64,000 nt of DNA from Candidatus Falkowbacteria bacterium HGW-Falkowbacteria-1 (lineage in GTDB: Bacteria > Patescibacteriota > Patescibacteriia > Patescibacteriales > UBA12465). Each line of letters starts with the position of its first letter. Within the stretch, counting starts at the first letter, position 1. The notes below the pieces were generated by a model. That model did not search any database, was not told where the DNA came from, and saw only the letters and a program-made list of their open reading frames with translations. This document shows, in pieces, positions 2,766 to 58,365 of the stretch. The stretch is taken from the NCBI GenBank assembly GCA_002840305.1, contig PHAI01000003.1:6908-70907 (forward strand), written 5' to 3'. The translations under genes and the position numbers were made by a program.

Positions 2766-2778
2766 ATAGGTATATTGA

Positions 2779-3471
2779 TTACCAATTTTTTAATGTTAAG
2801 CCTTTTTCAGCGGCGTCAACTTGCGCTTCTTGCTTAGAACTACCAAATCCCATTGAAACCATTTCTTCTTCTAAAAACAAACCAACTGTAAATTTTTTAT
2901 CATGATCAGGACCCTCTTCTTTTAAAACCTTATAAACAGGGGTAATGCTGGCCTTTTCTTGTGATGATTCTTGAAATCTCGACTTGGGGTCCAAATAAGA
3001 TTTACTCTCTATTATATCTTTTAAATTAAAGACTATATTTTTAAACACGAAATCTTTTGATTTTTCGATACCTTGATCAAGATAAATGGCCCCTATTATA
3101 GCTTCGATCGAATTAGCCAAAATATATTGACGAGCTTTTGAATTTTTATCCTTGGCCTCGCCCTTAGAGAGGAGAATAAATTCTTCTACTCCCAAATCTT
3201 TAGCAACTTGATAAAGCATTTTAGAATTAACCAAGCTAGCTCGCCAATTAGTTAAGTCACCCTCTGGATTATTTGGGAAGTTTATAAAAAGATATTCTGT
3301 TATAATTATTTCGAGTACCGCATCTCCTAAAAACTCCAACCTCTCATTATGACCAAGATGAAAATCATGGTTCTCATTCAAATAAGATCTATGTATAAGA
3401 GCTTGCTGCAGTAAATTTTTGTTATCAAAAAAAACACCAATTTTCTCTTCCAAATCTTTTAGCTTTGACAT
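2779..3471 (-). CDS. rnc: Ribonuclease III
   Basis: The signature NERLEFLGDAVLE is present, with a C-terminal dsRBD (GPDHDKKF...GSSKQEAQVDAAEKGL). Confidence 0.95.
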   Translation of the reverse strand: MSKLKDLEEKIGVFFDNKNLLQQALIHRSYLNENHDFHLGHNERLEFLGDAVLEIIITEYLFINFPNNPEGDLTNWRASLVNSKMLYQVAKDLGVEEFILLSKGEAKDKNSKARQYILANSIEAIIGAIYLDQGIEKSKDFVFKNIVFNLKDIIESKSYLDPKSRFQESSQEKASITPVYKVLKEEGPDHDKKFTVGLFLEEEMVSMGFGSSKQEAQVDAAEKGLTLKNW

Positions 3472-3606
3472 AAAAAGAAAATTATAAATTTCAAATTTTA
3501 ACTAATTATTTTCTATTGTTAAAAAATAAACAAATTATACTTTAACAAAATTTAAAATTTGGAACTTATAATTTAAAATTAAAATATTAATAAAAATCTT
3601 AAAAAT

Positions 3607-4113
3607 TTATTTCTCCTCGCTCGCCACAACTGACTCTTCTTCTTTGTTTTCTTTTTTGTTCTCTTTTTTCTCAGAATTTTTCTCTCTCTTTAACTTTTCC
3701 TCTTCTGGCATATTTGAATAAACTGCGCCCAAAACTCCATTTATAAATTTTCCCGAAGCTTCTCCCCCAAAATTTTTAGCGACCTCAATAGCTTCATTAA
3801 TAGCAACTTTAGGGGGGACGCTAGAACCAACTGCCAGTTCATAAATACCCAAACGCAAAACATTTCTGTCCACAATGCTTATCTGTTCTATAGGCCATTC
3901 TGTTGCATATTTTTTTATATAAGAATCTATAAGCTCAATATTTTCAAGAACGCCATTGGCCAAAGAACTAGTAAATCCTTGATCATCAAAATCTGGAGCA
4001 AAATCATCAAAATTTTTGCTAATCACTTCTCCGATATTTTTTCGACCATCATTAAAATCCCACTCAAACAAAGACTGTATAGCGATTGTCCTTGATAAAT
4101 GCCTGTTAGCCAT
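3607..4113 (-). CDS. nusB: Transcription antitermination factor NusB with a K/E-rich C-terminal tail
   Basis: [20 protein letters not shown]... and [13 protein letters not shown]...[17 protein letters not shown] are typical of NusB. The start was moved to the internal Met at 4113 (track ORF starts at 4143). Confidence 0.85.
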
Positions 4114-19804: not shown

Positions 19805-19878
19805 GGGCAATTAGCTCAGTTGGTTAGAGCGCAACACTGATAATGTTGAGGTCGGAGGTTCGAGTCCTCCATTGCCCA
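19805..19878 (+). tRNA. tRNA-Ile (GAT)
   Basis: The cloverleaf was folded by hand: acceptor gggcaat/attgccc, anticodon stem caaca/tgttg, loop ctGATaa and T arm ggagg-ttcgagt-cctcc. No CCA is encoded. Confidence 0.9.
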
Positions 19879-19893
19879 CGTCAGAATAAACAT

Positions 19894-19966
19894 AGCGGGG
19901 TAGAGCAGCTGGCAGCTCGCCAGGCCCATAACCTGGAGGCCGTGGGTTCGAGTCCCACCCCCGCAA
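19894..19966 (+). tRNA. tRNA-Met (CAT), initiator-like
   Basis: The sequence aligns position for position with the E. coli tRNA-fMet layout. It has an A11:U24 pair and a 1:72 mismatch (A:A). The anticodon loop is cCCATaa, with C at position 33. Confidence 0.85.
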
Positions 19967-19971
19967 CAATT

Positions 19972-20043
19972 GCCTCGGTAGCTCAGTGGTAGAGCAAAGG
20001 ATTGAAAATCCTTGTGTCGTCAGTTCAATTCTGACCCGGGGCA
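19972..20043 (+). tRNA. tRNA-Phe (GAA)
   Basis: Acceptor gcctcgg/ccggggc, anticodon arm aagga-ttGAAaa-tcctt, T arm gtcag-ttcaatt-ctgac. Confidence 0.9.
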
Positions 20044-20055
20044 CATTGGGATTTT

Positions 20056-20129
20056 CGGGGTGTGGCCCAGTTGGCTAGGGCGTCTGGTTTGGGACCAGAA
20101 GATCGTGGGTTCGAGTCCCACCACCCCGA
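20056..20129 (+). tRNA. tRNA-Pro (TGG)
   Basis: Acceptor cggggtg/caccccg, anticodon arm tctgg-ttTGGga-ccaga, T arm gtggg-ttcgagt-cccac. Confidence 0.9.
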
Positions 20130-24456: not shown

Positions 24457-24795
24457 ATGTCGGAAAATCAAGACAAGAAGTTTTTAGAAACAATCATCAC
24501 TGCTATTGTAGGCAAGCCAGAGGCTGTTTCAGTAGAAAGAACAGTTGATGAAAGAGGAGTTCTTTTGACATTGAAAATTGACCCTAGCGATATGGGTTTT
24601 GTAATCGGTCGCCGTGGACAAACAGCTCAAGCTATCAGAACTTTATTAAAAGTTGTTGGTGCCAGAAATAACTCTAGAGTAAATTTAAAGATTTACGACC
24701 CAAATGGAGGAGTTAGACCAGAAAGAACAGAAAGAACAGAAAGAAGAGATGAATCACCAATCGACACTTCAGCTATTGATGATTTAAAAATTTAG
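24457..24795 (+). CDS. KH-domain RNA-binding protein (YlqC/UPF0109-like)
   Basis: The sequence contains VSVERTVDERGVLLTLKIDPSDMGFVIGRRGQTAQAIRTLLKVVG. Its position between rpsP and trmD is the conserved one. Confidence 0.85.
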   Translation: MSENQDKKFLETIITAIVGKPEAVSVERTVDERGVLLTLKIDPSDMGFVIGRRGQTAQAIRTLLKVVGARNNSRVNLKIYDPNGGVRPERTERTERRDESPIDTSAIDDLKI

Positions 24796-24826
24796 TTCTT
24801 AACTAAAGTTAAATACAAAACAAAAA

Positions 24827-24850
24827 GCCACACATACGTGGTTTTTTGTT
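24827..24850 (+). terminator. Weak rho-independent terminator after the KH-protein gene
   Basis: A 5-bp stem (gccac/gtggt with one G-T pair) and a 6-nt loop are followed by tttttgttt. Confidence 0.45.
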
Positions 24851-24860
24851 TAGGTGCGAG

Positions 24861-25261
24861 TTTTACCATCTCGACCGAATAATGAGGAGCAAAGAGACAC
24901 CTCCTCTTTGTCACCTCCACCGAATGAGGAGCGCGGCAATATATCTCTTTGTCACCTCCACCGAATGAGGATCGCGGCAATATATCTCTTTGTCACCTCG
25001 ACCGAACGAGGAGCAAAGAGACGCCTCCCTTTTGTCACCTCGACCGAACGAGGAGCAAGGCGACGAGTAAGTGGAGAGGTCTAAAACATTGAGAAATAGA
25101 TCTCTCCGCTCGCAAGTTGCTCTGCAACTTTCTCGGTCGAGATGACAAAAAAGAAAAGCTCGGTCGAGATGACAAAAAAGAAAAGCTCGGTCGAGATGAC
25201 AAAAAATAAAAGCTCGGTCGAGATGACAAGGCCAACAAACTTTCTCAGTCGAAATAACAAA
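24861..25261. repeat. ~400-bp compound palindromic array of TTTGTCA(T/C)CTCGACCGA-head repeats between the KH-protein gene and trmD
   Basis: Five forward heads start at about 24861, 24906, 24947, 24988 and 25029, including 41-bp tandem units. Five reverse heads lie at 25132-25261, including 27-bp tandem units gaaaagctcggtcgagatgacaaaaaa. They surround a central ~120-bp full element at 25029-25148. Confidence 0.9.
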
Positions 25262-25280
25262 TTATTTAATTCACAACTTT

Positions 25281-25946
25281 ATGAAATTTAATATTATAAG
25301 CATCTTCCCCGAAATTTTTTCTTCATATTTTAACGAAGGAATAATGAAAAGAGCCATAGAGAAAAAAATTATTAAAATAAAAGCTCACAACTTACGTGAT
25401 TTTACGGATGATAAGCGCAAAACAGTAGACGACACAGTCTACGGCGGCGGAGCCGGAATGCTCTTAAAAATCGAGCCTCTTTATAAAGCTATAAAGAAGA
25501 TAGCTAAAAAAAGAAAAATAGCTGGACAAAAAATAATTTTATTATCTGCCAAGGGAAAGAAATGGGATCAACAAATGGCCAAAAAATATTCTAAATTAAA
25601 ATCTATAACTCTAATTTGCGGACGCTATGAAGGTGTCGATGAAAGAATAAAAAACTTTATCGACGAAGAGATATCCGTAGGCGACTATGTTTTAAGTGGC
25701 GGAGAAATCGGAGCGATGGTTATAGTAGACTCAGTAAGCAGATTGTTACCAAAAGTTTTAGGAAACAAAGAAAGCATAGAAGACGAATCTCATCAAAAAT
25801 CGGGTGAATTAGAGTACCCACAATATACTAAGCCCGCGACATTTAAAGCAGGCAAAAAAGAATATAAAGTACCCAAAGAATTAACGTCCGGAAATCACAA
25901 AGTAATAGAAGAGTGGAAAAAATCTCACAAAACAAAGACAGCTTAA
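25281..25946 (+). CDS. trmD: tRNA (guanine37-N1)-methyltransferase
   Basis: MKFNIISIFPEIF..., YGGGAGMLLKIEP, ICGRYEGVDERI and SVGDYVLSGGE are present. Confidence 0.95.
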   Translation: MKFNIISIFPEIFSSYFNEGIMKRAIEKKIIKIKAHNLRDFTDDKRKTVDDTVYGGGAGMLLKIEPLYKAIKKIAKKRKIAGQKIILLSAKGKKWDQQMAKKYSKLKSITLICGRYEGVDERIKNFIDEEISVGDYVLSGGEIGAMVIVDSVSRLLPKVLGNKESIEDESHQKSGELEYPQYTKPATFKAGKKEYKVPKELTSGNHKVIEEWKKSHKTKTA

Positions 25947-25977
25947 CACAATTTTTCTCATAAAAAATCAAGTAGCA

Positions 25978-26011
25978 CCAATAAAGGCCCAAAAAAATGG
26001 GCTTTTATTGG
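25978..26011 (+). terminator. Rho-independent terminator after trmD
   Basis: The 14-bp stem is ccaataaaggccca / tgggcttttattgg, with one G-T pair and an A6 loop. The T-rich 3' arm serves as the T-run. Confidence 0.7.
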
Positions 26012-26013
26012 TA

Positions 26014-26042
26014 TTGACATTTATTTGTTTATATGATATAAT
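26014..26042 (+). promoter_or_regulatory. Perfect sigma70 consensus promoter for the lipoprotein gene
   Basis: TTGACA (26014-26019), 17-nt spacer, TATAAT (26037-26042), with a TGn extended -10. Confidence 0.75.
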
Positions 26043-26119
26043 ACTAAGTTATGCGTTCTTTGACAAAAAGTTAATCAAGTTAATTATTAAGTTTGTCTTA
26101 CCCCTTTTCATCTCTACTG

Positions 26120-26129
26120 CCCCCCCCCC
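26120..26129. repeat. C10 homopolymer in the 5' UTR of the lipoprotein gene
   Basis: Ten consecutive C residues occur in an AT-rich genome. The tract lies between the promoter and the start codon and directly abuts a repeat-family unit. Confidence 0.95.
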
Positions 26130-26130
26130 A

Positions 26131-26171
26131 TTTTGTCATCTCAACCAAGTGGAGCAAACGTAGAGATCTAT
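26131..26171 (+). repeat. Short unit of the TTTGTCAT-head repeat family
   Basis: ttttgtcatctcaaccaagtggagcaaacgtagagatctat shares the head and the gagagatct tail with the other copies. Confidence 0.8.
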
Positions 26172-26224
26172 AAATTAGACCAATTTAATAATTAACTTGA
26201 TGTTTAACTTAAAAACAAATAAAA

Positions 26225-27493
26225 ATGAAAAGGAATAAACTTTCTTTCGCGGCCAATATCATATTGGCAATTGTATTATCGATTTCCTTCTTTGGATGTG
26301 AAAAAGATTATGACATGTTTGAACCCGAACAAGGAGTTCAGCCACCCTTAGGCACTATTAGTTTACACTACTCAGTATCAACACCAACCACAAAAAGCAC
26401 AACTAGCACTAAAAACAGTGGCGGTTCATTAACGTCTGGACAAACCATTTCTGGAGACAGCGCATATTACTTTTCCTTTTGGCTGGAACCAGCTGAAGGC
26501 GATAACATTGCCGATGGTATTTATCGAATAACAGATAACACCAACGGAGCAATAGTTTATGGCCCATCGGCTCAAGCTGAAAATGGAATTGATTTTCTTT
26601 TTCCACACAGCAGAAATTACACTTTGCGGGTTCAAGGAAATTATAACGGCACAGCCTTTGATTATGATAACATAACAGTTACTGTAACTGGAAGCGGAGG
26701 AGATGGTGATGACGACACAATACCCCCTACTTCACCGGTTAGACTTTATAATTTCAATATCAGTGGAAACAATGCTTCTGTGCAAGTTGCAATAAGCAAA
26801 AATGAGTATGCTGCACAAACAAGTTCAAATTGGTTCCATATTTATAGAGCCAACGGAACTGGTTTTGTAACAAATCAAACAGTTACTAGCGAAACTGACA
26901 GTGTTAGATTTACGCTGAATTTTTCAGCAACTACTAACACTTATGTAGAATTCAACGCCGCCTATCATGACGGCACAGCTGGAGGCATGTGGCTAACACC
27001 ATCGGCCGGAGAAAACCCAAGTATTTTATACTCGGGGAGTCAGGATATTCCATATAACAATTCTGGTTCATTTTTTGGCTTTAGATTGCACATAATATCT
27101 ACAAGTCAGGCAGAACTAAGAACTTATAGTGGAGTAACTGTCGCCACTCTCGGAACAACAACTAACGTTGATATCCCGGGAGAAAACGGAGATGGACCAG
27201 CCAATGGTTATACGGTAAGGTGGAGTGGTTACAAGCACTTCATTAAAACTGCTATAACCAGCCCAACTTTTCGATACAAAATCGGAACTAACGGTACTTG
27301 GACTTTCCTGTCCCTGACGCAAAATGTTAACCCTGAATATAGGGAATTAACTTTTCCAAACGGAACAACAGGAGAACTTCAATTCCAATGGGGTACTGGC
27401 AACACCAATACAACATTTGTTCCAGCAACAACAGAAATGTCTACCAGTATGTACTGGTCAACAACTCTGATGACCTTGGTTAAAAACATATAA
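26225..27493 (+). CDS. Putative lipoprotein, T/S/N/G-rich, function unknown
   Basis: The signal peptide ends in the lipobox-like ISFFGC, followed by the acidic run EKDYD. The gene is visibly more G+C-rich than its neighbours and has its own consensus promoter and strong terminator. Confidence 0.7.
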   Translation: MKRNKLSFAANIILAIVLSISFFGCEKDYDMFEPEQGVQPPLGTISLHYSVSTPTTKSTTSTKNSGGSLTSGQTISGDSAYYFSFWLEPAEGDNIADGIYRITDNTNGAIVYGPSAQAENGIDFLFPHSRNYTLRVQGNYNGTAFDYDNITVTVTGSGGDGDDDTIPPTSPVRLYNFNISGNNASVQVAISKNEYAAQTSSNWFHIYRANGTGFVTNQTVTSETDSVRFTLNFSATTNTYVEFNAAYHDGTAGGMWLTPSAGENPSILYSGSQDIPYNNSGSFFGFRLHIISTSQAELRTYSGVTVATLGTTTNVDIPGENGDGPANGYTVRWSGYKHFIKTAITSPTFRYKIGTNGTWTFLSLTQNVNPEYRELTFPNGTTGELQFQWGTGNTNTTFVPATTEMSTSMYWSTTLMTLVKNI

Positions 27494-27536
27494 GTTTAAC
27501 CCAAGCAAATACAAAGAAGACTGGCTCTTTCTAAAA

Positions 27537-27571
27537 AGCCCTTTGATTAATTTCAAAGGGCTCTTTTTTTA
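27537..27571 (+). terminator. Rho-independent terminator after the lipoprotein gene
   Basis: The 10-bp stem agccctttga / tcaaagggct has a 6-nt loop and is followed by a ctttttttt run. Confidence 0.85.
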
Positions 27572-27580
27572 TCCAATCCT

Positions 27581-27638
27581 CTTTGTCATCTCGACTGAGA
27601 AAGCTGTGAAGCAGCTTACGAATGGAGAGATCTATTTT
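27581..27638 (+). repeat. Half-element of the TTTGTCAT-head repeat family
   Basis: ctttgtcatctcgactgagaaagctgtgaagcagcttacgaatggagagatctatttt abuts the stop codon of the DHH phosphoesterase gene. Confidence 0.85.
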
Positions 27639-28689
27639 ACTGAATTTTAAATCTATTGTTCTCTTTTACAATTTTACCCTCAACCATAAACCCGGCCGCC
27701 TTTTTATGCCCTCCTCCGCCAAAATAAGAGGCTAAACAAGCAACATCTATGTCCTTGTCGCTAGATCCAACCCTTAAGCTTCCCTTTATTTTGCCGGGCT
27801 CTTCTTCTCTTAACAAAAGAACAACATTTGCCTCTGACAAACTGCTCATAAAAGCTACTATGTCCCCAAAAATATCAGAACTCAGATCTTGAGAAATGTT
27901 TCTGAATAAATTCAAGTCTTCATAGCTTAAAACCGAAAAAGCTATATTATATTTTTTATTTATCTTTAAATTATTAAGAGCTGTTCCCCAAATTTTCATT
28001 TCTAAAAAATTTTTATTTCTCCAGGTACTATTTAATAATTTCGGAAATTGCGCACCCAGGCTCATCATCTCAGAAGATATCTCCAAGGTTTTTTCATTCA
28101 CCGAAGAATATAAAAAATTACCAGTATCGGTTAATATTCCGGCCAAAATACAATTGGCCATATTACGATTTATTTCTAATTTGTTTTCTTTCAAAAAATA
28201 ATACAACAATTCAGTGGCAGAAGAAAGTTGAGTTTTTATTTCTATATTAGCATAAGTTTTAACTGGCAAATGATGATCTATTTCAACAATAAAAGTTTCC
28301 AGCATCAAATTTGCAGCAATGTGAATATTTTCGCTTATAAAAGTTCTCTCTATTGATCCACAATCAACTATAATAACTAAATCAAAATATTTTAAAAAAT
28401 CTTCTTTCGCTTTTATTCCTCCATTAAATTCATCCCCAACTCTTCCCAGTAGTTCGTCTTTGTCCGAAATTACATCCTCAAAATTAGGTAAATAATGATA
28501 ATCGTCGCCTTTCTTTTCAGCAAAGGCTATATATTTTTTATTATAAGTTTTTAAAACCTCTATCAAAACGCCCAAAGAGGAGATGGCGTCAACGTCAGGA
28601 TTGATATGTGATACTAAAAGAATTCTATCTGATGATAAAATTCTTTGCCAAACTTTATTAAATTTTTTTTTATCTAAATTTGAAATCAT
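27637..28689 (-). CDS. DHH/DHHA1 family phosphoesterase (NrnA-like oligoribonuclease/pAp phosphatase)
   Basis: LLVSHINPDVDAISSLG, VDCGS, IDHH and the C-terminal GGGGHKKAAGF are present. Confidence 0.85.
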   Translation of the reverse strand: MISNLDKKKFNKVWQRILSSDRILLVSHINPDVDAISSLGVLIEVLKTYNKKYIAFAEKKGDDYHYLPNFEDVISDKDELLGRVGDEFNGGIKAKEDFLKYFDLVIIVDCGSIERTFISENIHIAANLMLETFIVEIDHHLPVKTYANIEIKTQLSSATELLYYFLKENKLEINRNMANCILAGILTDTGNFLYSSVNEKTLEISSEMMSLGAQFPKLLNSTWRNKNFLEMKIWGTALNNLKINKKYNIAFSVLSYEDLNLFRNISQDLSSDIFGDIVAFMSSLSEANVVLLLREEEPGKIKGSLRVGSSDKDIDVACLASYFGGGGHKKAAGFMVEGKIVKENNRFKIQ

Positions 28690-29024
28690 ACATCCTCCTT
28701 CTCTATTTCTTCAAAAATATCGCCTATCTTCTTAACAGCTTTAAAGCTAGCATCTATCGCCCAAAAAAGTTTAGGAACCCTAACCAACCTAGCCTTGGTT
28801 TTTAAAATTTTTGACAAATGGCCAGATTTGGATCTAAGTCTTTTCAAAGCTGTGCCAGAAAAATTCTCAGGCAAAATAGAAACAAACACTTTAGCCGTAG
28901 ACAAATCGGACGAACAATGAACCTCGGAAATTGTAATTAAAAAATTTGGCGATTCTATTTCGCTAGTAATAATTTCCCCCAAATAGGATTTTATTATTTC
29001 ATTTAACTGATCAGCTTTGGCCAT
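28686..29024 (-). CDS. rbfA: Ribosome-binding factor A
   Basis: The sequence contains LNEIIKSYLGEII...ITISEVHCSSDLSTAKVFVSI. The ~112-aa size and the position downstream of infB fit rbfA. Confidence 0.8.
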   Translation of the reverse strand: MAKADQLNEIIKSYLGEIITSEIESPNFLITISEVHCSSDLSTAKVFVSILPENFSGTALKRLRSKSGHLSKILKTKARLVRVPKLFWAIDASFKAVKKIGDIFEEIEKEDV

Positions 29025-29124
29025 ATAATAATTTTAGATAAATTTATTAACTACAAAATTTTACAACGATTTGTTCAACAGACAAAGATACTGGAAAAGC
29101 TCTCCTAAAAATATAAACAAAAGA

Positions 29125-30471
29125 TTAACGAGAAATATAAATATATCCCCCAGACTGAACTATGAAAATTTTATTGTTACTTATAAAGCTAGCATTCCAA
29201 TAGGCCAAACCTAGATCCGTCTGTTCCTCCCAATTATTGCCATAATCACTAGAAAAATAAAAATACGCCCCTACCCCCGTGCCAAAAGTATCTCTGATGG
29301 CTAATATCTTTTTTCCGTCCGGAGACATTGCGACCCCCCTCCAACTATAAGCATTGTTCAAAGAAACAACATTACTCCAAGTTAACCCAGAGTCAGTGGA
29401 CAATAAAACATATGGACCATTTGATTGAGTGACAATAATTCTTGTCCCATCAAGCGAACAAGCCATATTCCGTCCATTCAAAAGACCGGTCTTAATCGCT
29501 GTCCAGGTTTCACCAAAATCATAAGAAGCGTAAATCGTAGAACCATTAGAGGCAAAAAGTTTTGATCCATCAAAAGAAGAGCATATTGATTGCCAGTTTC
29601 TTAATCCAGATGAAATTCTTTCTATCCATGTCACACCATAATCATTAGAAGTATAAATATAACTACCATTGGTTCCCGCAGCTACTAATTTTGAACCATC
29701 AGATGAAGACGCCAAAGCAGTCCACCATCTCAACCCGGCAGAAGTTTGTTCTGTCCACGTCGCACCAGAGTCAGGCGACGTATAAATATATCCGCTAATA
29801 CCAACTATGGCCGCTAATTTGGTGCCATCAGAAGAAGAGGCGACTCTCGTCCAATTTTTTGAACCAACCGAAGTTTGCGCCGTCCATGTCACTCCAGAAT
29901 CAGAAGAGGTATAAATATAACCAGTTGTAACGGAGGCCAATATTTTTGTACCATCAGCTGAAGAGGCTATTGAATTCCAATTTCTTGTAGTATCATTAAA
30001 CACTTCGTCCCACGATATTTTCCCGCAATCAATAGGTGATATTCCTCCAGGAGTAAGACATTTATCACCACTGCTCAAATCAGCCACCTGCTTACCTAAA
30101 CAAAATTTAATATTATAACTCGTATTATCATCAGTGGGAATATAAACATAATCGGCACCGCTAGAACAATCTCCGTCAGTTATATTTGGCGCAGAAGGAA
30201 TCTCATACATAAATACTACTCCGGTAGTGGAAGAGCCTATTATATTTTCATTCCACTCGTCAGTCGTGGGGTATCTGCTATTTTCATTAAAAAACAACTC
30301 TAAAGCTGTATGTATTTGCTTCATATCGGCTACTCTCTTGCTGTCTCTGGCCCGAGATCTGGCTTGTTGTAAAGCCACTACGGCAAGTGTTGCCAATATT
30401 CCAATAATAGCTATCACTACTAGAAGTTCTATGAGAGTAAAGGCTTTACGGGTTGTTATCTTTTTAAACAT
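29125..30471 (-). CDS. Type IV pilin-like protein fused to a 6-7-bladed BNR/Asp-box propeller (paralog of 4451..6745)
   Basis: The N-terminus ...[39 protein letters not shown] is nearly identical to that of the 764-aa paralog. Six SxDxGxTW-type repeats follow. Confidence 0.8.
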
Positions 30472-30505
30472 ACAAATATATTTTAATTATATAAATATTT
30501 ATATT

Positions 30506-30656
30506 CCTTTGTCATCTCGGCTGAGCTTCTCCCCTTTGTCATCTCGACCGAGAAAGTTGCAGAGCAACTTGTGAGCAGAGAGACCTATTTCTCAATGTTT
30601 TAGACCTCTCCGCTCACTTGTCGCCTTGCTCCTTATTCGGTCGAGGTGACACAAAG
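30506..30656. mobile_element. MITE-like ~123-bp element (30534-30656) plus an adjacent solo head (30506-30532) of the TTTGTCAT-head family
   Basis: The terminal inverted repeats are ctttgtcatctcgaccga ... tcggtcgaggtgacacaaag. The body is ~90 percent identical to the reverse complement of 25029-25148. It has no coding capacity and sits between the infB stop and the pilin start. Confidence 0.75.
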
Positions 30657-30668
30657 AGCTAACAAAAA

Positions 30669-32654
30669 TTAAGCAGAAATGTCATCTATTTCTTCCTCCT
30701 CCTCTTTATAAAAATGTAATATATCGTCAACTTGAACAAGCGGCTTACCTTCATATTTCAATCCACATTCTTGACCTTTCTCCACTTGATTAACATCTTG
30801 CTTACCGGCTTGAACTTTCTCTACCTTTCCCTTGTCAATAAATTCTTCACCCCTCCAGATTTCCACCAAAGAATTTGACTCTATCACTCCTTCTACAACC
30901 TTCCCCCCTACTATTTGTAGAGAATTTTCTGTTCTAAAAATAGCCAAAACCTTAACTCGACCCAAGTCTTTTCTTATCACCTGAGGTTTATAAATATTTT
31001 TCATCTCTAATTTTACATATTTAATCAAATCATAAATAATGCTAAAAACATTTACTTTAACATTTTTTTCCCTTATCAGATTTTCAGTTTGAGGCTGAAT
31101 CTTAACGTTAAAACCAATAATTTGAGCATTGGAATCCTCCGCCCTTTTAACATCACCCTCATTAACATTCCCTAACCCCTTATGCAAAATTTTAACTTTA
31201 ATTTTTTTAGTATTAATTTTCATTAACGATTCTTCGATAGCTTCAGCCGAGCCCAAAAAATCAGATTTAATTATTAGATTTAATTTACTTGAGTCGTCCT
31301 CGATTTCTATGTTTGATATTGTTTGATTTTCTGATTTATTTTTGGCAGTAATTTTTTTAACTCTAAGTTTTTCTCCCTCACCAACCTCCAAAACATCTCC
31401 AACTTCTGGCAACATTTTTAAACCTAAAACTCTAGCCGGAGTCGAAGGATCAGCCTCTTCGATTTCTTCTCCTCTATAATTTTTTAAAGATTTAACCTTT
31501 CCATAAATTACACCATTATAACAAAGTTGATCTCCAACTCTAAGTGTTCCATTTTGAACTAAAACTGTCGCCACTGGCCCAGCTCCTTTATCTATATTAG
31601 ATTCAACTACCGTTCCAACAGCCTTAGAGTCTGGATTAGCTTTTAAATTTGAAGCTTCCATTTCAGCACTTAAAAGCACCATATCTAAAATATCATCTAT
31701 TCCGGTCTTCTCCAAGGCTGAAACTGGAACGCAAACCGTCTTCCCTCCCCAGTCTTCTGGTATGATATTTAATTTGCTTGATAAATCTTGTTTAGTTTTA
31801 TTAATATCAGCATCTGGTTTATCTATTTTGTTTATAGCCACTATAAAAGGAATTTTAGAGGCCTCAATTATACGAAAAGCCTCAATAGTTTGAGGTTTAA
31901 CTCCATCGTCAGCCGCTACTACCAAAATAGCAATATCAGCCACCTTCGCTCCACGACTACGCATGGCAGTGAAAGCTTCATGACCCGGAGTATCTATAAA
32001 AGTTATTTTTTGATCCTTTCTGACAACCTGATAAGCGCCAATATGTTGCGTAATGCCACCCGACTCTCCTGCAACCACGTCAGTTGATCTAATAGCGTCA
32101 AGTAATTTAGTTTTACCATGGTCAACGTGCCCCATAACAACAATTATAGGAGGTCTATTTATAAGTTCTTCGTCTTTTTCTTTAGAAATAAGACCAGCCA
32201 ACTTTTCTTTTCCTCCACCCGATTTCATTTCTTCTTTACCCTCTTTTAATAAAACTTCTAGCCCCAAGCTGGAGCCGATAATAGAGGCTGTATCAAAATC
32301 TATCCTTTCATTCATGGAAACAAAAACACCATTTTTCATCAACTCCTTCAAAACTGTATTCACTGGCAAATCAGCTAGAACCGCTAATTCTTTGACGGTT
32401 ACAAATTTGTTTATTTCAATTTTTTTTATTTCTTTTTCAACTGCATCTTCCTGCTCACGCTTTAAAGCTTCTTCCGCAATTCTTTTTTTCTCAATCTGAG
32501 CAACAAAAATAGGCCAATTTTTAATAATTTTTTTAGCTATCATTTTGTCTACCTTGATAGCCTTTTGACCAATATTAAAACCCATTTGTGGCAATAAATG
32601 ACGCAATTCATAAGGAGAAACCTTCAATGCTCTGGCTAATTCAGTTAAATTCAT
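30669..32654 (-). CDS. infB: Translation initiation factor IF-2
   Basis: The G domain has GHVDHGKTKLLD, DTPGHEAF and NKID. The C-terminal IF-2 domains are present. Confidence 0.97.
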   Translation of the reverse strand: MNLTELARALKVSPYELRHLLPQMGFNIGQKAIKVDKMIAKKIIKNWPIFVAQIEKKRIAEEALKREQEDAVEKEIKKIEINKFVTVKELAVLADLPVNTVLKELMKNGVFVSMNERIDFDTASIIGSSLGLEVLLKEGKEEMKSGGGKEKLAGLISKEKDEELINRPPIIVVMGHVDHGKTKLLDAIRSTDVVAGESGGITQHIGAYQVVRKDQKITFIDTPGHEAFTAMRSRGAKVADIAILVVAADDGVKPQTIEAFRIIEASKIPFIVAINKIDKPDADINKTKQDLSSKLNIIPEDWGGKTVCVPVSALEKTGIDDILDMVLLSAEMEASNLKANPDSKAVGTVVESNIDKGAGPVATVLVQNGTLRVGDQLCYNGVIYGKVKSLKNYRGEEIEEADPSTPARVLGLKMLPEVGDVLEVGEGEKLRVKKITAKNKSENQTISNIEIEDDSSKLNLIIKSDFLGSAEAIEESLMKINTKKIKVKILHKGLGNVNEGDVKRAEDSNAQIIGFNVKIQPQTENLIREKNVKVNVFSIIYDLIKYVKLEMKNIYKPQVIRKDLGRVKVLAIFRTENSLQIVGGKVVEGVIESNSLVEIWRGEEFIDKGKVEKVQAGKQDVNQVEKGQECGLKYEGKPLVQVDDILHFYKEEEEEIDDISA

Positions 32655-46263: not shown

Positions 46264-48159
46264 TTATTTTTGTTCTTGTTGACTACGAGCGAACTCTTTT
46301 TTAGCCTCTTCTTGCTCCAATAACTGTCTAGGATCTGATGTTATTAGCTGATCTTCACTGTATGAAGCCACCACCTTAATAGCTACGTGCTTATTACCGG
46401 CGAAAAATATCCCCTCTCCAACTCCACATTCTAAAAGCAAAAATTTTTCTCCTTCAGTCAACATAAAAGTTTTTTGAACCAAATCAATAGCGGCCGGGGA
46501 TTGCTTCAACAAAATCTGCAAAGAAGAGTTAGTAACAATAGCCTTTCCATAAGGTGATGTTAAAAAATCATTTACATCCTGCGTAATCGTGGTTACTCCT
46601 AAATAATACTTACGACATCTCTTAACTAGGGCAAATATAAATTTAGCACTATCTTCATTTTGCATCATCCACCAAGCCTCATCAATAATTAAAACCCTTC
46701 TCTTGGTCTCGCTCCTAACAACGTTCCAAATATAATTAATAATGGTATAAATAGCCATTGGACGAAGTTCATCTTCCAAATCTCTAACCGAAAAACAAAC
46801 TAATTGATTGTTCATTTCAACGTTAGTCGGATTATTCAAAATTCCAGAGAAAGTACCTTCGGTATATTTTTTTAATCTTTGCCCAATATCTGAACCACCT
46901 TCCATTCCGTCTAGAACTTGTTGGAAATCAGACAGAGTCGGAGGATCTATTTGGGACAAATCAGAATCAGGAGTAATATCTTTTTTAGCATAAGTTTCAA
47001 GGAGTGCCCTGTCAACTATAGAATCCTCATCATAATTCAAAGCACCAACCATTAAACGCACCAATCCCTTCAAAGTTATAACAGCACTTCTAATAATATC
47101 CTTCGGCTTTACTTCGCCACCTATTCCTCTTGGTAAATCAAACGGATTTATTTTATTTTCACTGGATAAAGAAATATTAATGTAAGTTCCACCAACGGCA
47201 TCAGACAAATGTTTATATTCGTATTCAGGATCAATAACTATAACATCAGAACCCATCATCAAGGATCTTAAAACTTCTAATTTTATACAATAACTTTTTC
47301 CAGCTCCAGAGGTAGCAAACACCACGGAATTAGCATTTTGCAAACTAAATCTATCAAACAAAATTAAACTGTTATTGTGCCTATTTATTCCATACAAAAC
47401 CCCTCTGTCACTGGTTAGTTCACTGGATATAAACGGGAAAGAAGAGGCTATAGGAGACGAATTCATATTAAAAGTAATATAAAGATCGTCGTTACCCAAT
47501 GGCAAACAAGAATTAAAAGCTTGTTCTGCTTGATAAAATGCTCTCTTGGAATAAACAAGACGAGAACCAAAAACATCCTCTACTTGATCGGACAACCTAT
47601 CTAACTCTTCCAAATTATCAGCATGAATAGTAATATACAAAGCAAATTGAAAAAATTTTTCAGTCCCCTGAGTAAGAGAATCTCTTAAGAATTCAATATC
47701 GCGAAGAGCGGTTTCTCTAAGTGGGTCTCTGGGAGCACCTTTTTCAGAATCTGACATAATTTGAGCCTCCAAATTTCCAACCCTGCTCTTTAATTGTTTC
47801 AAAATAATTGCACTTTTCACTGGGTAAAAAAACATTGAGACATCAAAACACTCGTTTAAATTTATAATCGGGGCAAACCAACCAACGCTTATATATCTAG
47901 GGTAAGTTATAACAAAAATAGTTCTCAAAAACTTTTGACCCAAAACCAAATAAGTAGGATTAACTTTAAAGCTGGCAGGAGAAATTAAATCTCTAACCGA
48001 AAGCATACCCCTTAATAGAGTTTTTTCCTCTTCTATAAGCTCCCTGGTTATATTGATGTCTTCTTCTTTAACACCAACCCTTTGAAGCTCTTCTTCAATG
48101 ATTCCTTTCTTCTTCTTTTTTGAATCAAGTTCTAGTCTTTGGCTTTTTAAATCTATCAT
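46264..48159 (-). CDS. virB4: VirB4/TraE-family type IV secretion ATPase
   Basis: Walker A is ATSGAGKSY and Walker B is VLIIDEAWWMM. The N-terminal region YPRYISVGWFAPIINL...FDVSMFFYPV is typical of Gram-positive-type VirB4. Confidence 0.88.
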   Translation of the reverse strand: MIDLKSQRLELDSKKKKKGIIEEELQRVGVKEEDINITRELIEEEKTLLRGMLSVRDLISPASFKVNPTYLVLGQKFLRTIFVITYPRYISVGWFAPIINLNECFDVSMFFYPVKSAIILKQLKSRVGNLEAQIMSDSEKGAPRDPLRETALRDIEFLRDSLTQGTEKFFQFALYITIHADNLEELDRLSDQVEDVFGSRLVYSKRAFYQAEQAFNSCLPLGNDDLYITFNMNSSPIASSFPFISSELTSDRGVLYGINRHNNSLILFDRFSLQNANSVVFATSGAGKSYCIKLEVLRSLMMGSDVIVIDPEYEYKHLSDAVGGTYINISLSSENKINPFDLPRGIGGEVKPKDIIRSAVITLKGLVRLMVGALNYDEDSIVDRALLETYAKKDITPDSDLSQIDPPTLSDFQQVLDGMEGGSDIGQRLKKYTEGTFSGILNNPTNVEMNNQLVCFSVRDLEDELRPMAIYTIINYIWNVVRSETKRRVLIIDEAWWMMQNEDSAKFIFALVKRCRKYYLGVTTITQDVNDFLTSPYGKAIVTNSSLQILLKQSPAAIDLVQKTFMLTEGEKFLLLECGVGEGIFFAGNKHVAIKVVASYSEDQLITSDPRQLLEQEEAKKEFARSQQEQK

Positions 48160-48176
48160 ATTTGAAAAAAATTATT

Positions 48177-48851
48177 TTACAATTCTACCTGCAATTTTCT
48201 AACATCTGCGAGCAACTGATTTTGGGCCGTCTCTGGATTATATGAATTATAGTAAAGCTCTATCAACTCTTGCGTGTTTAATTGTTTGACGTCAACACCC
48301 AAAGAAAGTAAGGCCGAGCTTATACTGTCAACTCTTCTAGACAAGGATTCCTTGTATTTTAAAAACTTAGTTTCTTTTAACTTAAAAATTGTCGCTGGTT
48401 TAAATGCCTCCGCCAACAAAGAGAAAAAACCTTTTCTTTTGTCAGAAAATGGGCTAAATGAAACAACAACAAAAAACTTTTTATTCATGATTTTTCCGAT
48501 AGAAACTAGTTCTTTTATATATTCAATATATTCAGCTGTCTGAATCTTCAATAATCTATTGGTCTGTTCTCTTTCTTTTATTTTTAAATGATCTAAATAA
48601 TTTTGAATATTCAAATCTCTAGACTGAACAACTATTTGAATAGGGGTATTTATGTTGTTTAAAAAACTTATATAAGATGAAATTATAGCGTTTTGTTCAT
48701 CTTCACTTTTTAAGGCAAAATTAATACTAGAGACTGACAAAACAGCCCTAAGTGTTCCATCTCTCATAACAACCGTATCATATTTTATCTCTGAGATGTC
48801 TAGATATTGTTGTGTTGATGGCGCCTGGTTTTTACCTTTCTTTTCGGCCAT
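48177..48851 (-). CDS. Hypothetical protein of the T4SS-like operon
   Basis: The ORF sits between the PrgI-like and VirB4-like genes. Only a weak resemblance to the non-ATPase N-terminal regions of VirB4-type proteins was noted. Confidence 0.5.
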   Translation of the reverse strand: MAEKKGKNQAPSTQQYLDISEIKYDTVVMRDGTLRAVLSVSSINFALKSEDEQNAIISSYISFLNNINTPIQIVVQSRDLNIQNYLDHLKIKEREQTNRLLKIQTAEYIEYIKELVSIGKIMNKKFFVVVSFSPFSDKRKGFFSLLAEAFKPATIFKLKETKFLKYKESLSRRVDSISSALLSLGVDVKQLNTQELIELYYNSYNPETAQNQLLADVRKLQVEL

Positions 48852-48951
48852 AATTTATATAAAATTTAATAATATTTAATTTGATAGATTCATGCATCCG
48901 CCCTAATTAATCAAAATATAGTCAGATAAACCGAAATAACAAGGGAAAAAA

Positions 48952-49404
48952 CTAAAAGTCTACTTCATCCGATACGAGCTTATCGCTATCTTCGCCTTTA
49001 TACCTTCCCTTAGTATCAACCACTAAGGACAACTTGGACAATTTAGCTTGATTTAAGTATTTCTCTTGGGTTACTATATTTTCATATTTAAACTCCTTTT
49101 CTTCTTTGTTTTCAACGCCAGAGTCTTTATGATTCCAAACTCTAAGCCCCGGTTTCTTAAAAGTCTGCACTAAATTTAAAATAAAATAATGAAAGGGCCT
49201 CCCGTTAATCTTTAAAAAGGCGAATGTTCCAGAAACTGCAAAAATAAAAACACTAACTAAAACAAAACCAGTAAAATCAAGAGTCTTAAAAGCAAGAAAC
49301 ATGAAAAGAGCCGCTCCCAAAAAAATAAGAAACTGTCTAGCGGTAATAGGCCCGATAATTTTGGGCTCAACATCTATGAATTGTGGGACGGTAAATTGTT
49401 GCAT
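48952..49404 (-). CDS. PrgI-family (VirB3-like) small membrane protein
   Basis: MQQFTVPQFIDVEPKIIGPITARQFLIFLGAALFMFLAF is followed by a second TM helix. This is the pattern recalled for PrgI-family proteins next to VirB4. Confidence 0.65.
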   Translation of the reverse strand: MQQFTVPQFIDVEPKIIGPITARQFLIFLGAALFMFLAFKTLDFTGFVLVSVFIFAVSGTFAFLKINGRPFHYFILNLVQTFKKPGLRVWNHKDSGVENKEEKEFKYENIVTQEKYLNQAKLSKLSLVVDTKGRYKGEDSDKLVSDEVDF

Positions 49405-49409
49405 AAAAA

Positions 49410-50996
49410 CTAAAATCTTAAAGTCTTGTTGAACTCAAGTATAGCATCTAACTCTTCTTTGCTCAAATAATCTTTGCCATAACTTTTGAGCTCTGAGATT
49501 ATTTGGTCTACTCCAACACCCCTGTCTCCAGCATTTAAAAATATTTTTAAATAAAGCTTGTGGATTGAACTTTGACGCCAAGCTTTTATTCCTTCTAACA
49601 TCTTACCATAATCAAGACCCTCTAATGTTTTAATCTTTTCTCCAATCTTCGCCAAAGCCTCCTTGGGTTCCTTCGCCAAACGTCTAAAGTTGACTAAATC
49701 CAAATAACGGATTTCATCAATTGGCCCCATTATCTTCATTTTTTTGACATCTGACATTTTTATTTTACCGGTAGCAGAGTCTATATCAGCTATCTTTTTT
49801 GGTATATTCAAGGGTATAAACACGCCTTCTGCTTTTTTATTTTTTTCATCAACTACAATTTTGTCATTCACTATTTCTTTAGCAACGACAGGAACAACGG
49901 GAACGACAGGAACAGCGGGAACTTCAGCAATAATAGGTGGTTTCGTAATCACGGGAGCTTCAACCGCCGGTATCTCTTTTATTTCTTCTTGCTTTAAATC
50001 TTTTTCTACAGCGGGTTCGCTTTTTGGCATATTGGAAACAAGAACTTCTTTTTTATTCGAAATTACGGCCGGATGTAACGGAGGCAAAATATTTTCGGGC
50101 TCAGAAGCCTCTATCATCTTTAATTCGTTTTTGCCATAAGAGACTCCATGGCTCAATCTATTTATTTTGTCTAAAACATCTCTGTCTACGCTTGAACTGC
50201 TTTTCACTTCTTCATATTCCTCTTTTTGCAAAGAAGCGGCTATCATAAAAACATTGCTAATCATCTGATCGGCCAAAGAGAATCCGCCCATCTCTTTTGA
50301 TTTGGAAAAAATTTTTCTTATTTCTATTTTATCTTTAAGTCCTCTTAGATATTTTATAAGCAAATCTAAAAATTGTTTGCTTTTATCATCTTCGTTAAAC
50401 TTTAAATTTAAAATTTTTATTATTTCATTAGCTTGATTTTTTACCTTGTCTACATGATCATCCTTTAAATAGTTGCCCAAGATTTCCTGCTCTTTTATAT
50501 AAGGTTCACTGTTTAAATTGTCCACGTCCTCTCTAATCTCTCCTGCTTTGTCATCTCGACCAAGCAAGCCATGCTTCTCCTCCTTGTCATCTCGACCAAG
50601 CAAGCCATGCTTCTCCTCCTTGTCATCTCGACCAAGCAAGCCATGCTTCTCCTCCTTGTCATCTCGACCAAGCAAGCTCTGCTTGCGAGTGGAGAGATCT
50701 ATTTCACTTTTATCGATTTTAAAACCTAAATAATCAGCTATTTTAGAAAAAATTTTGTTTTTTAAATCTTTAGCTAATTGTTCTGACTTTTCTTGATTTA
50801 AATTTAATTCAGTAAAAAATATTAAGGGCAAACTTTCAATATTTATTTCTTTTATAACCACTCTCATAACAATAGAGGCTAGCTCAACGTTATATTCTTG
50901 TTCTATTTTTTCTATAGCCTTAACGGCTTCATCGCTGTCAACAGCCATCTTTATGTCGTCACTTAAGTTATTAAATTTATCCAAGTAATCAAACAT
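49410..50996 (-). CDS. Hypothetical protein of the T4SS-like operon containing an in-frame (LLGRDDKEEKHG)x3.5 repeat and a PV-rich linker
   Basis: This is a clean 528-aa ORF. The repeat is encoded by the 36-bp tandem copies of the interspersed repeat family. Confidence 0.55.
   Translation of the reverse strand: MFDYLDKFNNLSDDIKMAVDSDEAVKAIEKIEQEYNVELASIVMRVVIKEINIESLPLIFFTELNLNQEKSEQLAKDLKNKIFSKIADYLGFKIDKSEIDLSTRKQSLLGRDDKEEKHGLLGRDDKEEKHGLLGRDDKEEKHGLLGRDDKAGEIREDVDNLNSEPYIKEQEILGNYLKDDHVDKVKNQANEIIKILNLKFNEDDKSKQFLDLLIKYLRGLKDKIEIRKIFSKSKEMGGFSLADQMISNVFMIAASLQKEEYEEVKSSSSVDRDVLDKINRLSHGVSYGKNELKMIEASEPENILPPLHPAVISNKKEVLVSNMPKSEPAVEKDLKQEEIKEIPAVEAPVITKPPIIAEVPAVPVVPVVPVVAKEIVNDKIVVDEKNKKAEGVFIPLNIPKKIADIDSATGKIKMSDVKKMKIMGPIDEIRYLDLVNFRRLAKEPKEALAKIGEKIKTLEGLDYGKMLEGIKAWRQSSIHKLYLKIFLNAGDRGVGVDQIISELKSYGKDYLSKEELDAILEFNKTLRF
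50546..50707. repeat. Three 36-bp tandem units plus one full unit of the TTTGTCAT-head repeat family, located inside a CDS and in frame
   Basis: The units cttgtcatctcgaccaagcaagccatgcttctcctc lie at 50546, 50582 and 50618. The terminal unit ...caagctctgcttgcgagtggagagatctatttcac spans 50654-50707. On the minus strand they translate as EIDLSTRKQSLLGRDDK(EEKHGLLGRDDK)n. Confidence 0.9.
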
Positions 50997-57956: not shown

Positions 57957-58365
57957 CTTTGTCATTCCCGCGAGCCACGTTCTACGTGGCGAAAGCGGGA
58001 ATCCATTCAAAAAAACATGAAAAACCATAATTACTATATATACATATTAGCAAGTAAGAAAAACGGCACGCTATACATAGGGGTGACTAATGGTTTATTT
58101 AAAAGAACACTTCAACACAAACTAAAAGAAAACAAGAAAGGCTTTACCTCAAAATATAACGTTAATAAATTGGTTTATTATGAAAATTACAAGTATATCA
58201 AAGGCGCCATAGCGAGAGAAAAATGTTTAAAAAAATGGAAAAGAAAATGGAAATTAGAATTAATAGAAAAAGAAAATCCAACTTGGCTAGATCTGTTTGA
58301 AGACATGAGTTAGGTCTGACTTCCCGCTTTCGCCACGTAGAACGTGGCTCGCGGGAATGACAAAG
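57957..58365 (+). mobile_element. 409-bp unit: 45-bp perfect terminal inverted repeats flanking a GIY-YIG nuclease gene
   Basis: 57957-58001 (ctttgtcattcccgcgagccacgttctacgtggcgaaagcgggaa) is the exact reverse complement of 58321-58365. Each arm is itself a nested hairpin, with outer stem ttcccgc/gcgggaa and inner stem gccacg/cgtggc. The ctttgtcat heads point outward. Confidence 0.8.
58017..58313 (+). CDS. GIY-YIG nuclease family protein (UPF0213/COG2827 type, 98 aa)
   Basis: The sequence is YYIYILASKKNGTLYIGVTNGLFKRTLQHK...KLVYYENY....AIAREKCLKKWKRKWK. The start was moved to Met24 of the track ORF, whose 5' extension merely translates the left inverted repeat. Confidence 0.9.
   Translation: MKNHNYYIYILASKKNGTLYIGVTNGLFKRTLQHKLKENKKGFTSKYNVNKLVYYENYKYIKGAIAREKCLKKWKRKWKLELIEKENPTWLDLFEDMS

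Follow-up and report, generated by a model that had tools for sequence, protein, structure and literature searches.

TGTC-tagged REP-type repeats in frame within a predicted disordered linker of a conserved Patescibacteria protein encoded in a T4SS-like gene cluster

The stretch of DNA considered here, referred to as the window, comprises 64,000 nucleotides of contig PHAI01000003.1 (positions 6,908 to 70,907) of Candidatus Falkowbacteria bacterium HGW-Falkowbacteria-1, a bacterium of the candidate phyla radiation (CPR, or Patescibacteria). It includes a gene for a protein of 528 amino acids (aa) which is crossed by a block of short palindromic repeats. The gene lies directly upstream of genes for a PrgI-family protein, a TraC-like protein and a VirB4/TraG-type ATPase, a cluster that resembles a type IV secretion system (T4SS), and those homologs of the 528-aa protein that carry source names come from Patescibacteria. 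No Pfam domain was found in the protein, nor in its 393-aa and 937-aa neighbours. With a probability of roughly 0.8, the block is a cluster of TGTC-tagged repetitive extragenic palindromic (REP) elements placed in frame within the first of two disordered linkers in a conserved CPR protein that is intact.

The block occupies positions 50548-50707 and is built from an interspersed palindromic repeat: three 36-bp units contain only its head, and a single full unit comes after them. This composition had been proposed in an initial annotation and is borne out by matches to the core of the intergenic family and by Tandem Repeats Finder, which reports a period of 36, 4.0 copies, 96% matches and a score of 262 over 50539-50684; perfect 36-bp periodicity spans 130 bp (50548-50677). 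The head, TGTCATCTCGACC, begins at 50549, 50585, 50621 and 50657, and only the copy at 50657 extends into a full unit; in the first three, the head is followed by a pseudo-hairpin, AAGCA-AGCCA-TGCTT, with a pyrimidine tract, after which the unit ends. Two TGCTT microhomologies, at 50644 in the 5' pyrimidine tract and at 50680 in the 3' arm of the inner hairpin, lie one 36-bp period apart. Where the inserted DNA begins and ends is uncertain: similarity to other copies extends to about 50727 (family D7), and a stretch on the opposite side of the block, 50529-50545, resembles what is left of the clamp of a partner in the opposite orientation.

The element and the host gene run on opposite strands, + and − respectively. 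The open reading frame (ORF) of the gene, 49410-50996(-), crosses the block free of stops, as the initial annotation had also stated, and reads ...KSEIDLSTRKQSLLGRDDK(EEKHGLLGRDDK)x3AGEIRED...; the residues encoded by the block, 98-150, are IDLSTRKQSLLGRDDK(EEKHGLLGRDDK)x3, or IDLSTRKQS-LLGRDDK-(EEKHGLLGRDDK)x3. The period of 36 bp amounts to 12 codons and gives a peptide repeat of 12 residues. The head is readable in five of the six frames, and the GRDDK frame is the hydrophilic, charged one, the others giving VISTE, CHLD, SSRP or VEMT. In those JGI and ENA assemblies in which the gene is present, the main frame is open over its whole length.

An AlphaFold2 model of the protein, built on an alignment of 84 sequences, contains three confident helical regions (residues 1-100, ~175-282 and ~415-528), in which the predicted local distance difference test score (pLDDT) is mostly above 90, separated by two low-confidence linkers. 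The repeat block falls in the first linker (~101-174), where pLDDT is 37-61 over residues 101-170 compared to more than 90 in the flanking domains. A Foldseek search of the model against the PDB gave no match at E <=0.001. In an alignment of 15 homologs, the N-terminal region closes at a conserved ...DYLG motif, after which every ortholog has a linker that is variable in length and sequence. Orthologs at or below 61% identity have a variable charged linker in place of the LLGRDDK block, and GRDDK- or NDK-type motifs occur in only two of 120 homologs, P0001 and P0002. The block is thus absent from orthologs at this distance, which was one of the comparisons proposed in the initial annotation.

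The initial annotation had also considered that the insertion fused or disrupted an ancestral gene. It is very improbable that the gene is a pseudogene, or that it is split into an N-terminal domain and a re-initiated C-terminal protein. Each 36-bp unit does carry a Shine-Dalgarno-like arrangement on the coding strand, AAGGAGG-N6-ATG (50548-50690, −), which might provoke ribosome pausing or spurious gene calls; however, this ATG is not in the main frame, and the ORF that it starts (MACLVEMTRRRS...) is short and terminates soon after the array. Within the block, the coding strand shows no site resembling a promoter or a terminator. The main frame is fully open, and, because each ortholog is a single ORF in which the three conserved regions follow in the same order, the gene is considered neither a fusion nor disrupted.

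The block could also be a tandem repeat native to the protein, with the intergenic copies derived from the gene or resembling it by chance. A period that is a multiple of three and a peptide plausible as a low-complexity linker would suit such an origin; however, it is effectively refuted, as the core is 150-fold over-represented in the window, the full unit with both clamps occurs in non-coding DNA of unrelated phyla, and orthologs lack the block. Allowing up to two mismatches, the window contains 18 matches to the 14-mer core; shuffles give an expectation of 0.12, and none of 100 shuffles reached 18. Besides the copies in the gene, the family occupies four further loci, all of them intergenic (24863-25229, 26134, 27584 and 30510-30657). 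A unit length divisible by three, to which attention had been drawn earlier, holds for the 36-bp array and fails as a trait of the family, since the remaining head arrays of the window repeat every 27 or 41 bp. The 36-bp period, the partly palindromic units and the CPR host additionally recall CRISPR-like or TIGR-like arrays of RNA guides, and PMC12045711 gives TIGR RNAs as 36 nt long and reports TIGR-Tas from parasitic bacteria. This possibility was rejected and is given practically no credence: units within the array are identical, with no alternation of repeats and variable spacers, arrays of the same family have the other two periods, the array lies within a conserved ORF and matches nothing in Rfam, and no Tas, Cas or other effector gene was noticed among the ORFs examined.

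The unit is laid out as an unpaired TGTC tag, a 5-bp outer stem (ATCTC...GAGAT), an internal loop, a variable inner hairpin, a clamp and a short tail. Its consensus is TGTC-AT-CTCGACC / variable hairpin / GGAGAG-AT-CT, and the family ends in ...GAGAT-CTA. All 17 heads in the window start with TGTC, as do the 110 metagenome units listed, where this follows from the construction of the search pattern. Inner hairpins vary between copies yet stay palindromic (GCAAGC/GCTTGC, AAGTTGC/GCAACTT, AAGCTG/CAGCTT), and units 25033 and 30651 have ACCTC..GAGGT for ATCTC..GAGAT in the outer stem, a compensatory double change that counts as a single event because both units belong to one duplicated 147-nt doublet. 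An Rfam scan of the whole window at gathering thresholds returned four tRNAs only, and E-value scans of 24700-30800 and 50400-50850 returned sub-threshold chance matches only, with no described RNA family.

Judged by these sequence features, the repeat is a TGTC-tagged REP-type element that matches the working definition of the CGTC/TGTC superfamily. The definition given for that superfamily (Di Nocera, De Gregorio & Rocco 2013, PMC3733652) asks for a CGTC tag often changed to TGTC (CCTC being allowed) and for A-T-led stems with a short tail, along with dimers in inverted orientation and copies that now and then lie within genes; the superfamily takes in dRS3 of Neisseria and RPE-4/RPE-6 of Rickettsia (PMC3733652). 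The present family has the unpaired tag, A-T at stem positions 1 and 2 and what may be a comparable short 3' tail; it is multicopy, found in several phyla and mostly intergenic near the 3' ends of genes, with five loci in 64 kb, four of them intergenic and two forming inverted doublets. It differs in being bipartite, with an outer stem of 5 bp, an internal loop and an optional, hypervariable inner hairpin in a variable segment of 15-45 nt, unlike the simple stem of 8-9 bp and loop of 4-5 nt of CGTC-1 to CGTC-4. In addition, its tail is CTA rather than the consensus CCA, which is retained by a sister family in the window; its tandem arrays of heads stand 5' of a full unit; and its CPR host is outside the phyla reported in PMC3733652. 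Since the stem and loop metrics differ, the repeat is treated as working like a CGTC REP and not as a member of families 1-4. Its core sequence was not found in a relevant context in the literature searched, which is no proof of novelty.

The family is not private to this genome and extends over many phyla. An exact-core scan of one genome per species gave clustered copies (TTGTCATCTCGACCGRAGCG..AGTGGAGAGATCT) in Acidobacteriaceae, where they form inverted doublets, and in Prevotella, Riflebacteria, Thermomicrobiales and another Patescibacteria genome. Scanning metagenome contigs with a two-anchor pattern gave at least 120 loci and at least 110 non-redundant full units, on contigs of 31-67% GC. 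Among the matches listed there are 91 distinct inner segments. Of these variants, 20% contain a perfect inner stem of at least 5 bp, compared to 3.5% of shuffles, and the share rises to 41% for those of at least 24 nt. From this diversity and these stem frequencies, the element is a conserved clamp around a hypervariable, optional hairpin.

The number of units in the gene differs between assemblies of nearly identical genomes. P0001, the 504-aa protein of ENA assemblies, has two LLGRDDK units compared to four in the window; its locus (L001) is 99.98% identical to the window over 21.5 kb, and the sole difference in the gene is one clean gap of 72 bp, or two units, in the array. An intergenic array of 27-bp heads upstream of trmD (25132-25229; L245, L247) likewise differs by one unit in two of four other assemblies, whereas the adjacent 41-bp array (24884-25064) is invariant. 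ERZ27239241 combines two units in the gene with a full 27-bp array, ERZ27239243 has two units and one 27-bp unit fewer, and ERZ27239242 also has one 27-bp unit fewer. Assembly artefact, in which a tandem repeat is collapsed or expanded and the real genomes all have one unit number, is the less likely explanation and keeps an appreciable share of the probability. Units 1-3 are identical, and the 130-bp periodic tract is close to the k = 141 of the MEGAHIT-style k141 names of the ENA contigs; being shorter than k, however, it is resolvable in principle. Such arrays do break assemblies: two short-read Logan contigs of this organism, L248 and L250, terminate within the 27-bp array, at a point 104 nt upstream of trmD. 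Real variation is favoured because the three ENA assemblies combine the two arrays differently, and every assembly holds the insertion itself.

Copies clearly deep within real ORFs are rare, amounting to two of the 110 listed metagenome units (L136 and L232), both in the same strand and frame as here (..GRDDK). Several other cases that looked intragenic were set aside, being either elements located in 5' leaders or long frames without stops in DNA of high GC. The L232 ORF (517 aa, 2330-3883, on a CPR contig) is a distant homolog of the 528-aa protein and lies upstream of a PrgI gene; the C-terminal domains are 32% identical (E = 9e-16) and the middle domains match at E = 5e-6. Its element (~3170-3290), a full unit with a further head, is in frame in the second linker and is an insertion independent of that in the window. 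In P0002, 61% identical to the 528-aa protein (L003, 5255-5560), a weak, decayed-looking match to the element (GA-CTC-CCAC...GGGCGGGAATGATAA) occupies the position of the block and is followed in the linker by repeated GAATGACAAAGGTGAAG motifs in the same frame, read as NDK / NDKGE; this is suggestive only, and would be either an older insertion or a second event at the same spot. Together, such placements show disordered linkers of this protein family to be repeatedly accepting of TGTC elements, whether through tolerance or use.

Use, rather than tolerance, is the premise of the view that the array was exapted as a contingency-type locus, in which a protein of the secretion apparatus would have its linker length, or its surface properties, adjusted through the number of units. 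The differing unit number between near-identical assemblies, the independent gain of the same element by a distant homolog in its other linker, and the hydrophilic frame common to all three intragenic copies seen would agree with this view. However, non-coding intergenic head arrays vary likewise, and hypervariability, in sequence as well as in length, is general among linkers of this protein family. Purifying selection that removes hydrophobic frames or those with Cys would lead just as well to a common frame. Adaptive exaptation is accordingly considered improbable, and a tolerated insertion in a disordered linker explains all observations. The initial annotation had suggested a mobile repeat exapted as a protein linker with free copy number, of which the mobile repeat, the linker and the variable number are upheld by the absence from orthologs, the AlphaFold2 model and the 72-bp difference, and the exaptation stays hypothetical. 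Likewise, the direct interaction then proposed between the repeat family and the T4SS-like operon is probably incidental, with the reservation that L232 independently carries the same element.

On the favoured reading of a tolerated REP insertion, the element would have reached the gene either through insertion or through gene conversion with another copy as donor. It probably survived because its strand and frame encode a hydrophilic, charged peptide (..GRDDKEEK..) fit for a flexible linker and the added length was a multiple of three. A first duplication of the slippage type, as the spacing of the TGCTT microhomologies would predict, may have been followed by growth and shrinkage of the 36-bp units through replication slippage or unequal recombination. 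The protein would then be made with a linker of variable length, the functional effect being probably neutral. More speculatively, spread of the family may have been aided by a small GIY-YIG nuclease bracketed by these REPs.

Several points weigh against this reading. Translation across the block is judged from the open frame only. No target-site duplication is recognisable at the in-gene copy or at 57957/58365, and neither a clean empty site nor such a duplication is recoverable because the linker cannot be aligned between orthologs. The match in P0002 makes it possible that the insertion is older than its fresh-looking repeats imply and was later homogenised. The difference of two versus four units lies between assemblies from different pipelines, in a perfect tract of 130 bp, and partial assembly collapse may have contributed. 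Finally, folds of single-unit RNAs were not significantly more stable than those of shuffles (z −1.5 to +0.7), and hence the case for the hairpin rests on comparison between copies rather than on thermodynamics.

In-frame repeats of this kind have precedents. CGTC/TGTC REPs are known in frame within ORFs, singly or grouped, where they encode 20-80 residues (PMC3733652), and Rickettsia palindromic elements (RPEs) are read through and were judged compatible with the protein fold as their sites are linkers or parts of the surface (Ogata et al. 2000, Science 290:347, as relayed in PMC10969869). The present case shares with RPEs the in-frame insertion into a conserved ORF, the absence from orthologs and the reduced-genome host, while differing in several respects: RPE-1 type elements are ~100-150 bp long, restricted to Rickettsia and unrelated in sequence, whereas the present unit measures ~45-50 bp, is spread over phyla and is arrayed in tandem, in numbers that differ between assemblies. 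Intragenic MITEs (miniature transposable elements with inverted repeats) and other small repeats (ERIC, BOX, Correia, cyanobacterial MITEs; PMC10969869) are similarly small, non-autonomous and found as in-frame fusions or insertions in ORFs. In apparent contrast to MITEs, the unit here is a single tagged hairpin with no recognisable terminal inverted repeats with target-site duplication; the doublets and the GIY-YIG unit do have inverted ends.

That GIY-YIG unit belongs to the sister family (57957-58001/58321-58365; TGTC-AT-TCCCGC...GCGGGA-AT-CCA), which is nearer to the dRS3/CGTC-1 type, and the 98-aa gene between its arms (58017-58313) encodes a GIY-YIG nuclease (Pfam E = 1.8e-13). In loci selected for the element, tblastn found 16 GIY-YIG homologs; in nine of these, tags within 300 nt on either side point towards the gene, an arrangement shown by 2.8% of random segments of the same loci, and some of the bracketed loci carry the exact TGTCATCTCGAC family (L171, L146). 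In unbiased clustering of ORFs of at least 70 aa within 500 nt of heads, GIY-YIG is the largest family (13 loci, 11 distinct), the next-largest clusters being repeat translations or ordinary housekeeping genes. Loci picked by the protein alone show a clean REP-gene-REP order in three other CPR contexts (L254, L255-257, L258). A plasmid collection, including some mislabelled chromosomes, holds 22 records with GIY-YIG homologs, dominated by known hosts of CGTC REPs (Rhizobium, Sinorhizobium, Shinella, Neisseria, Azospirillum), and tagged REPs lie on both sides in five of the six homologs inspected.

These flanking REPs are dRS3 in N. gonorrhoeae and host-specific families in S. meliloti, Aeromonas and Planktothrix, with CGTC relatives seen in Neisseria, Azospirillum and Aeromonas. 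On plasmid AZO_p3 of Azospirillum lipoferum 4B (L261, 255018-256293), the gene lies between sufB and sufC, with CGTCATCCCCGCG CGTC REP dimers on both sides. On the Planktothrix agardhii plasmid NZ_LR882964.1 (L263, 18341-19613), it lies between an MmeI-type restriction-modification gene and the DISARM gene drmA, and is flanked by TGTCATTCTGAG REPs in mirror-image head arrays of three heads and a full unit each. The nuclease gene is 45-57% identical while the flanking REP family differs by host, and bracketed homologs span CPR, Acidobacteria, Neisseria, Azospirillum, Sinorhizobium, Aeromonas and Planktothrix.

CGTC REPs seem to be without a dedicated transposase, and no dedicated enzyme is reported for them (PMC3733652); the units here bracket a GIY-YIG gene, a candidate for one. 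It is tentatively proposed, at somewhat less than even odds, that the superfamily is partnered with a stand-alone GIY-YIG nuclease of ~95-100 aa, REP-GIY-YIG-REP being an autonomous or 'master' form like REPtrons and REPIN-RAYT, and solo units, head arrays and in-frame copies its non-autonomous products. These arrangements show an association, in which the nuclease could be a mobiliser, a structure-specific nickase in copy turnover, or a homing or passenger gene living in or targeting REPs. No link between GIY-YIG (or YhbQ) and REP sequences was found in the literature searched, which likewise does not prove novelty.

The nuclease role is kept at these several options because REPINs of the dRS3 type are tied to a Group 2 REP-associated tyrosine transposase (RAYT) and a Y1-like gene neighbours the element in L196; a Y1 (RAYT-like) transposase may instead be the real mobiliser. 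REPIN-RAYT systems (Bertels & Rainey 2011, PMC3116915; bioRxiv 10.1101/2021.07.10.451892) resemble the present one in having inverted REP doublets as the repeated unit, a single protein gene bracketed by REPs, largely vertical inheritance and singletons that are decayed doublets. Those of Neisseria, with the master sequence ATTCCCGCGCAGGCGGGAATC (dRS3 type), are linked to the Group 2 RAYT (bioRxiv 10.1101/2021.07.10.451892). In contrast, the tag here is TGTC rather than GTAG, and RayT of E. coli, used as a tblastn query, had no match in the window; in ~1.75 Mb of element loci it gave a single marginal neighbour (L196). The L196 gene (within 1-1000) is Y1 (IS200/RAYT-like) transposase-like, with a Pfam Y1_Tnp match (E = 1.3e-4) just under the cut-off; a head lies upstream of it and a full TGTCATCTCGAC element downstream, both of them reversed, and about ten tandem 18-nt units precede it. 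Such a neighbour was found at one of ~230 element-selected loci, compared to 13 with a GIY-YIG neighbour.

As a separate observation, L188 and two other element-selected loci have transposase-like ORFs (MNILAMDLGKSK...) within 500 nt of heads. These ORFs, which are presumably of the IS110 family, may reflect REP-targeting insertion sequences.

Table 1. Positions of the repeat block, its host gene and related features in the window
Feature	Position	Strand	Details
Host gene	49410..50996	−	528 aa; CPR-specific, all-helical three-domain protein in T4SS-like cluster
Three 36-bp head-only units	50548..50656	+	5' pyrimidine tract, TGTCATCTCGACC, AAGCAAGCCATGCTT; − strand translation (EEKHGLLGRDDK)x3
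One full unit	50657..50707	+	TGTC-AT-CTCGACC tag/head 50657-50669; − strand translation EIDLSTRKQSLLGRDDK
Parts of the full unit			Inner hairpin AAGCAAGC/TCT/GCTTGC 50670-50686; 3' clamp TGGAGAGATCT 50690-50700; tail ATTTCAC to 50707
Downstream T4SS-like genes	46264..49404	−	PrgI-family 48952-49404; TraC-like 48177-48851; VirB4/TraG-type P-loop ATPase 46264-48159
Intergenic doublet, head arrays on both outer sides	24863..25229	both	+ strand: 4 heads (period 41) and full unit 25033-25082; − strand: full unit 25096-25147 and 3 heads (period 27, to 25229)
Single degenerate unit	26134..26175	+	TGTCATCTCAACC...GTAGAGATCT
Single full unit between convergent genes	27577..27654	+	Unit 27584
Head and full unit facing inverted full unit	30509..30657		Full units 30537-30586 (+) and 30602-30651 (−); 90% inverted copy of 25030-25176
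Sister-family REP unit	57957..58365	+	Perfect 45-nt inverted repeat (57957-58001, 58321-58365) brackets 98-aa GIY-YIG gene 58017-58313

The heads-then-one-full-unit layout of the in-gene block recurs in the intergenic loci of the window (25229-25096(-), 24863-25082 and 30510-30586). Four of the seven full units in this genome have one to four head-only units on the tag side, each made up of a head and 11-23 nt of pyrimidine-rich filler, with periods of 27, 36 and 41. The same layout is seen in L076 (Prevotella), L037 (CPR), L144 and L180 (metagenome contigs) and L263 (the Planktothrix plasmid). As a universal rule it was rejected, since only six of the 110 listed metagenome units have a head of the same family within 120 nt upstream; any TGTCAT lies upstream in 19 of the 110 and downstream in eight. 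The architecture is therefore common in this genome and a minority feature among the metagenome units listed.

Other observations concern the surroundings of these copies. The stop codon of a DHH-family gene (27637-28689, −) lies within the tail of REP unit 27584, 4 nt past the clamp, and its last few codons overlap a stretch similar to other copies (family D7, to 27654); by position, the unit appears to supply the end of this ORF. The two 147-nt doublets (25030-25176 and 30508-30654) are 90% complementary, inverted and 5.3 kb apart, and bracket trmD, a 422-aa ORF, the DHH phosphoesterase gene, rbfA and a pilin-like gene, which makes them a ready inversion substrate; no inversion between them was found in the near-identical genome. 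Two paralogous repeat proteins (4700-6700 and 29125-30471) share internal repeats of ~126 bp (families D1-D5) and a 190-nt stretch of 75% identity (6500-6689, 30253-30442), and the one at 29125-30471 has a type IV pilin-like N-terminus and faint Pfam matches of the BNR/sortilin type. Four tRNA genes are clustered on the + strand at 19805-20129.

In-frame repeats are already known from intragenic CGTC and GTAG REPs and from RPEs, and what is new here is the host group, not the kind. Selfish DNA in protein genes, classically a Rickettsia curiosity, is thereby extended to the ultra-small CPR/Patescibacteria, and is seen at an early stage, with perfect repeats whose unit number differs between near-identical assemblies. 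For annotators, the arrays call for caution, as they break or collapse short-read assemblies and yield spurious small ORFs (VISTE.., SSRP.., VEMT.., GRDDK..). A modular, pan-phylum REP with head arrays and one full unit constrains models of how such elements multiply, and the consistent bracketing of one GIY-YIG subfamily by TGTC/CGTC REPs gives a testable candidate for the question left in 2013 of what, if anything, mobilises CGTC-type REPs. For the proteins that receive them, such insertions illustrate one concrete route by which disordered linkers may acquire sequence.

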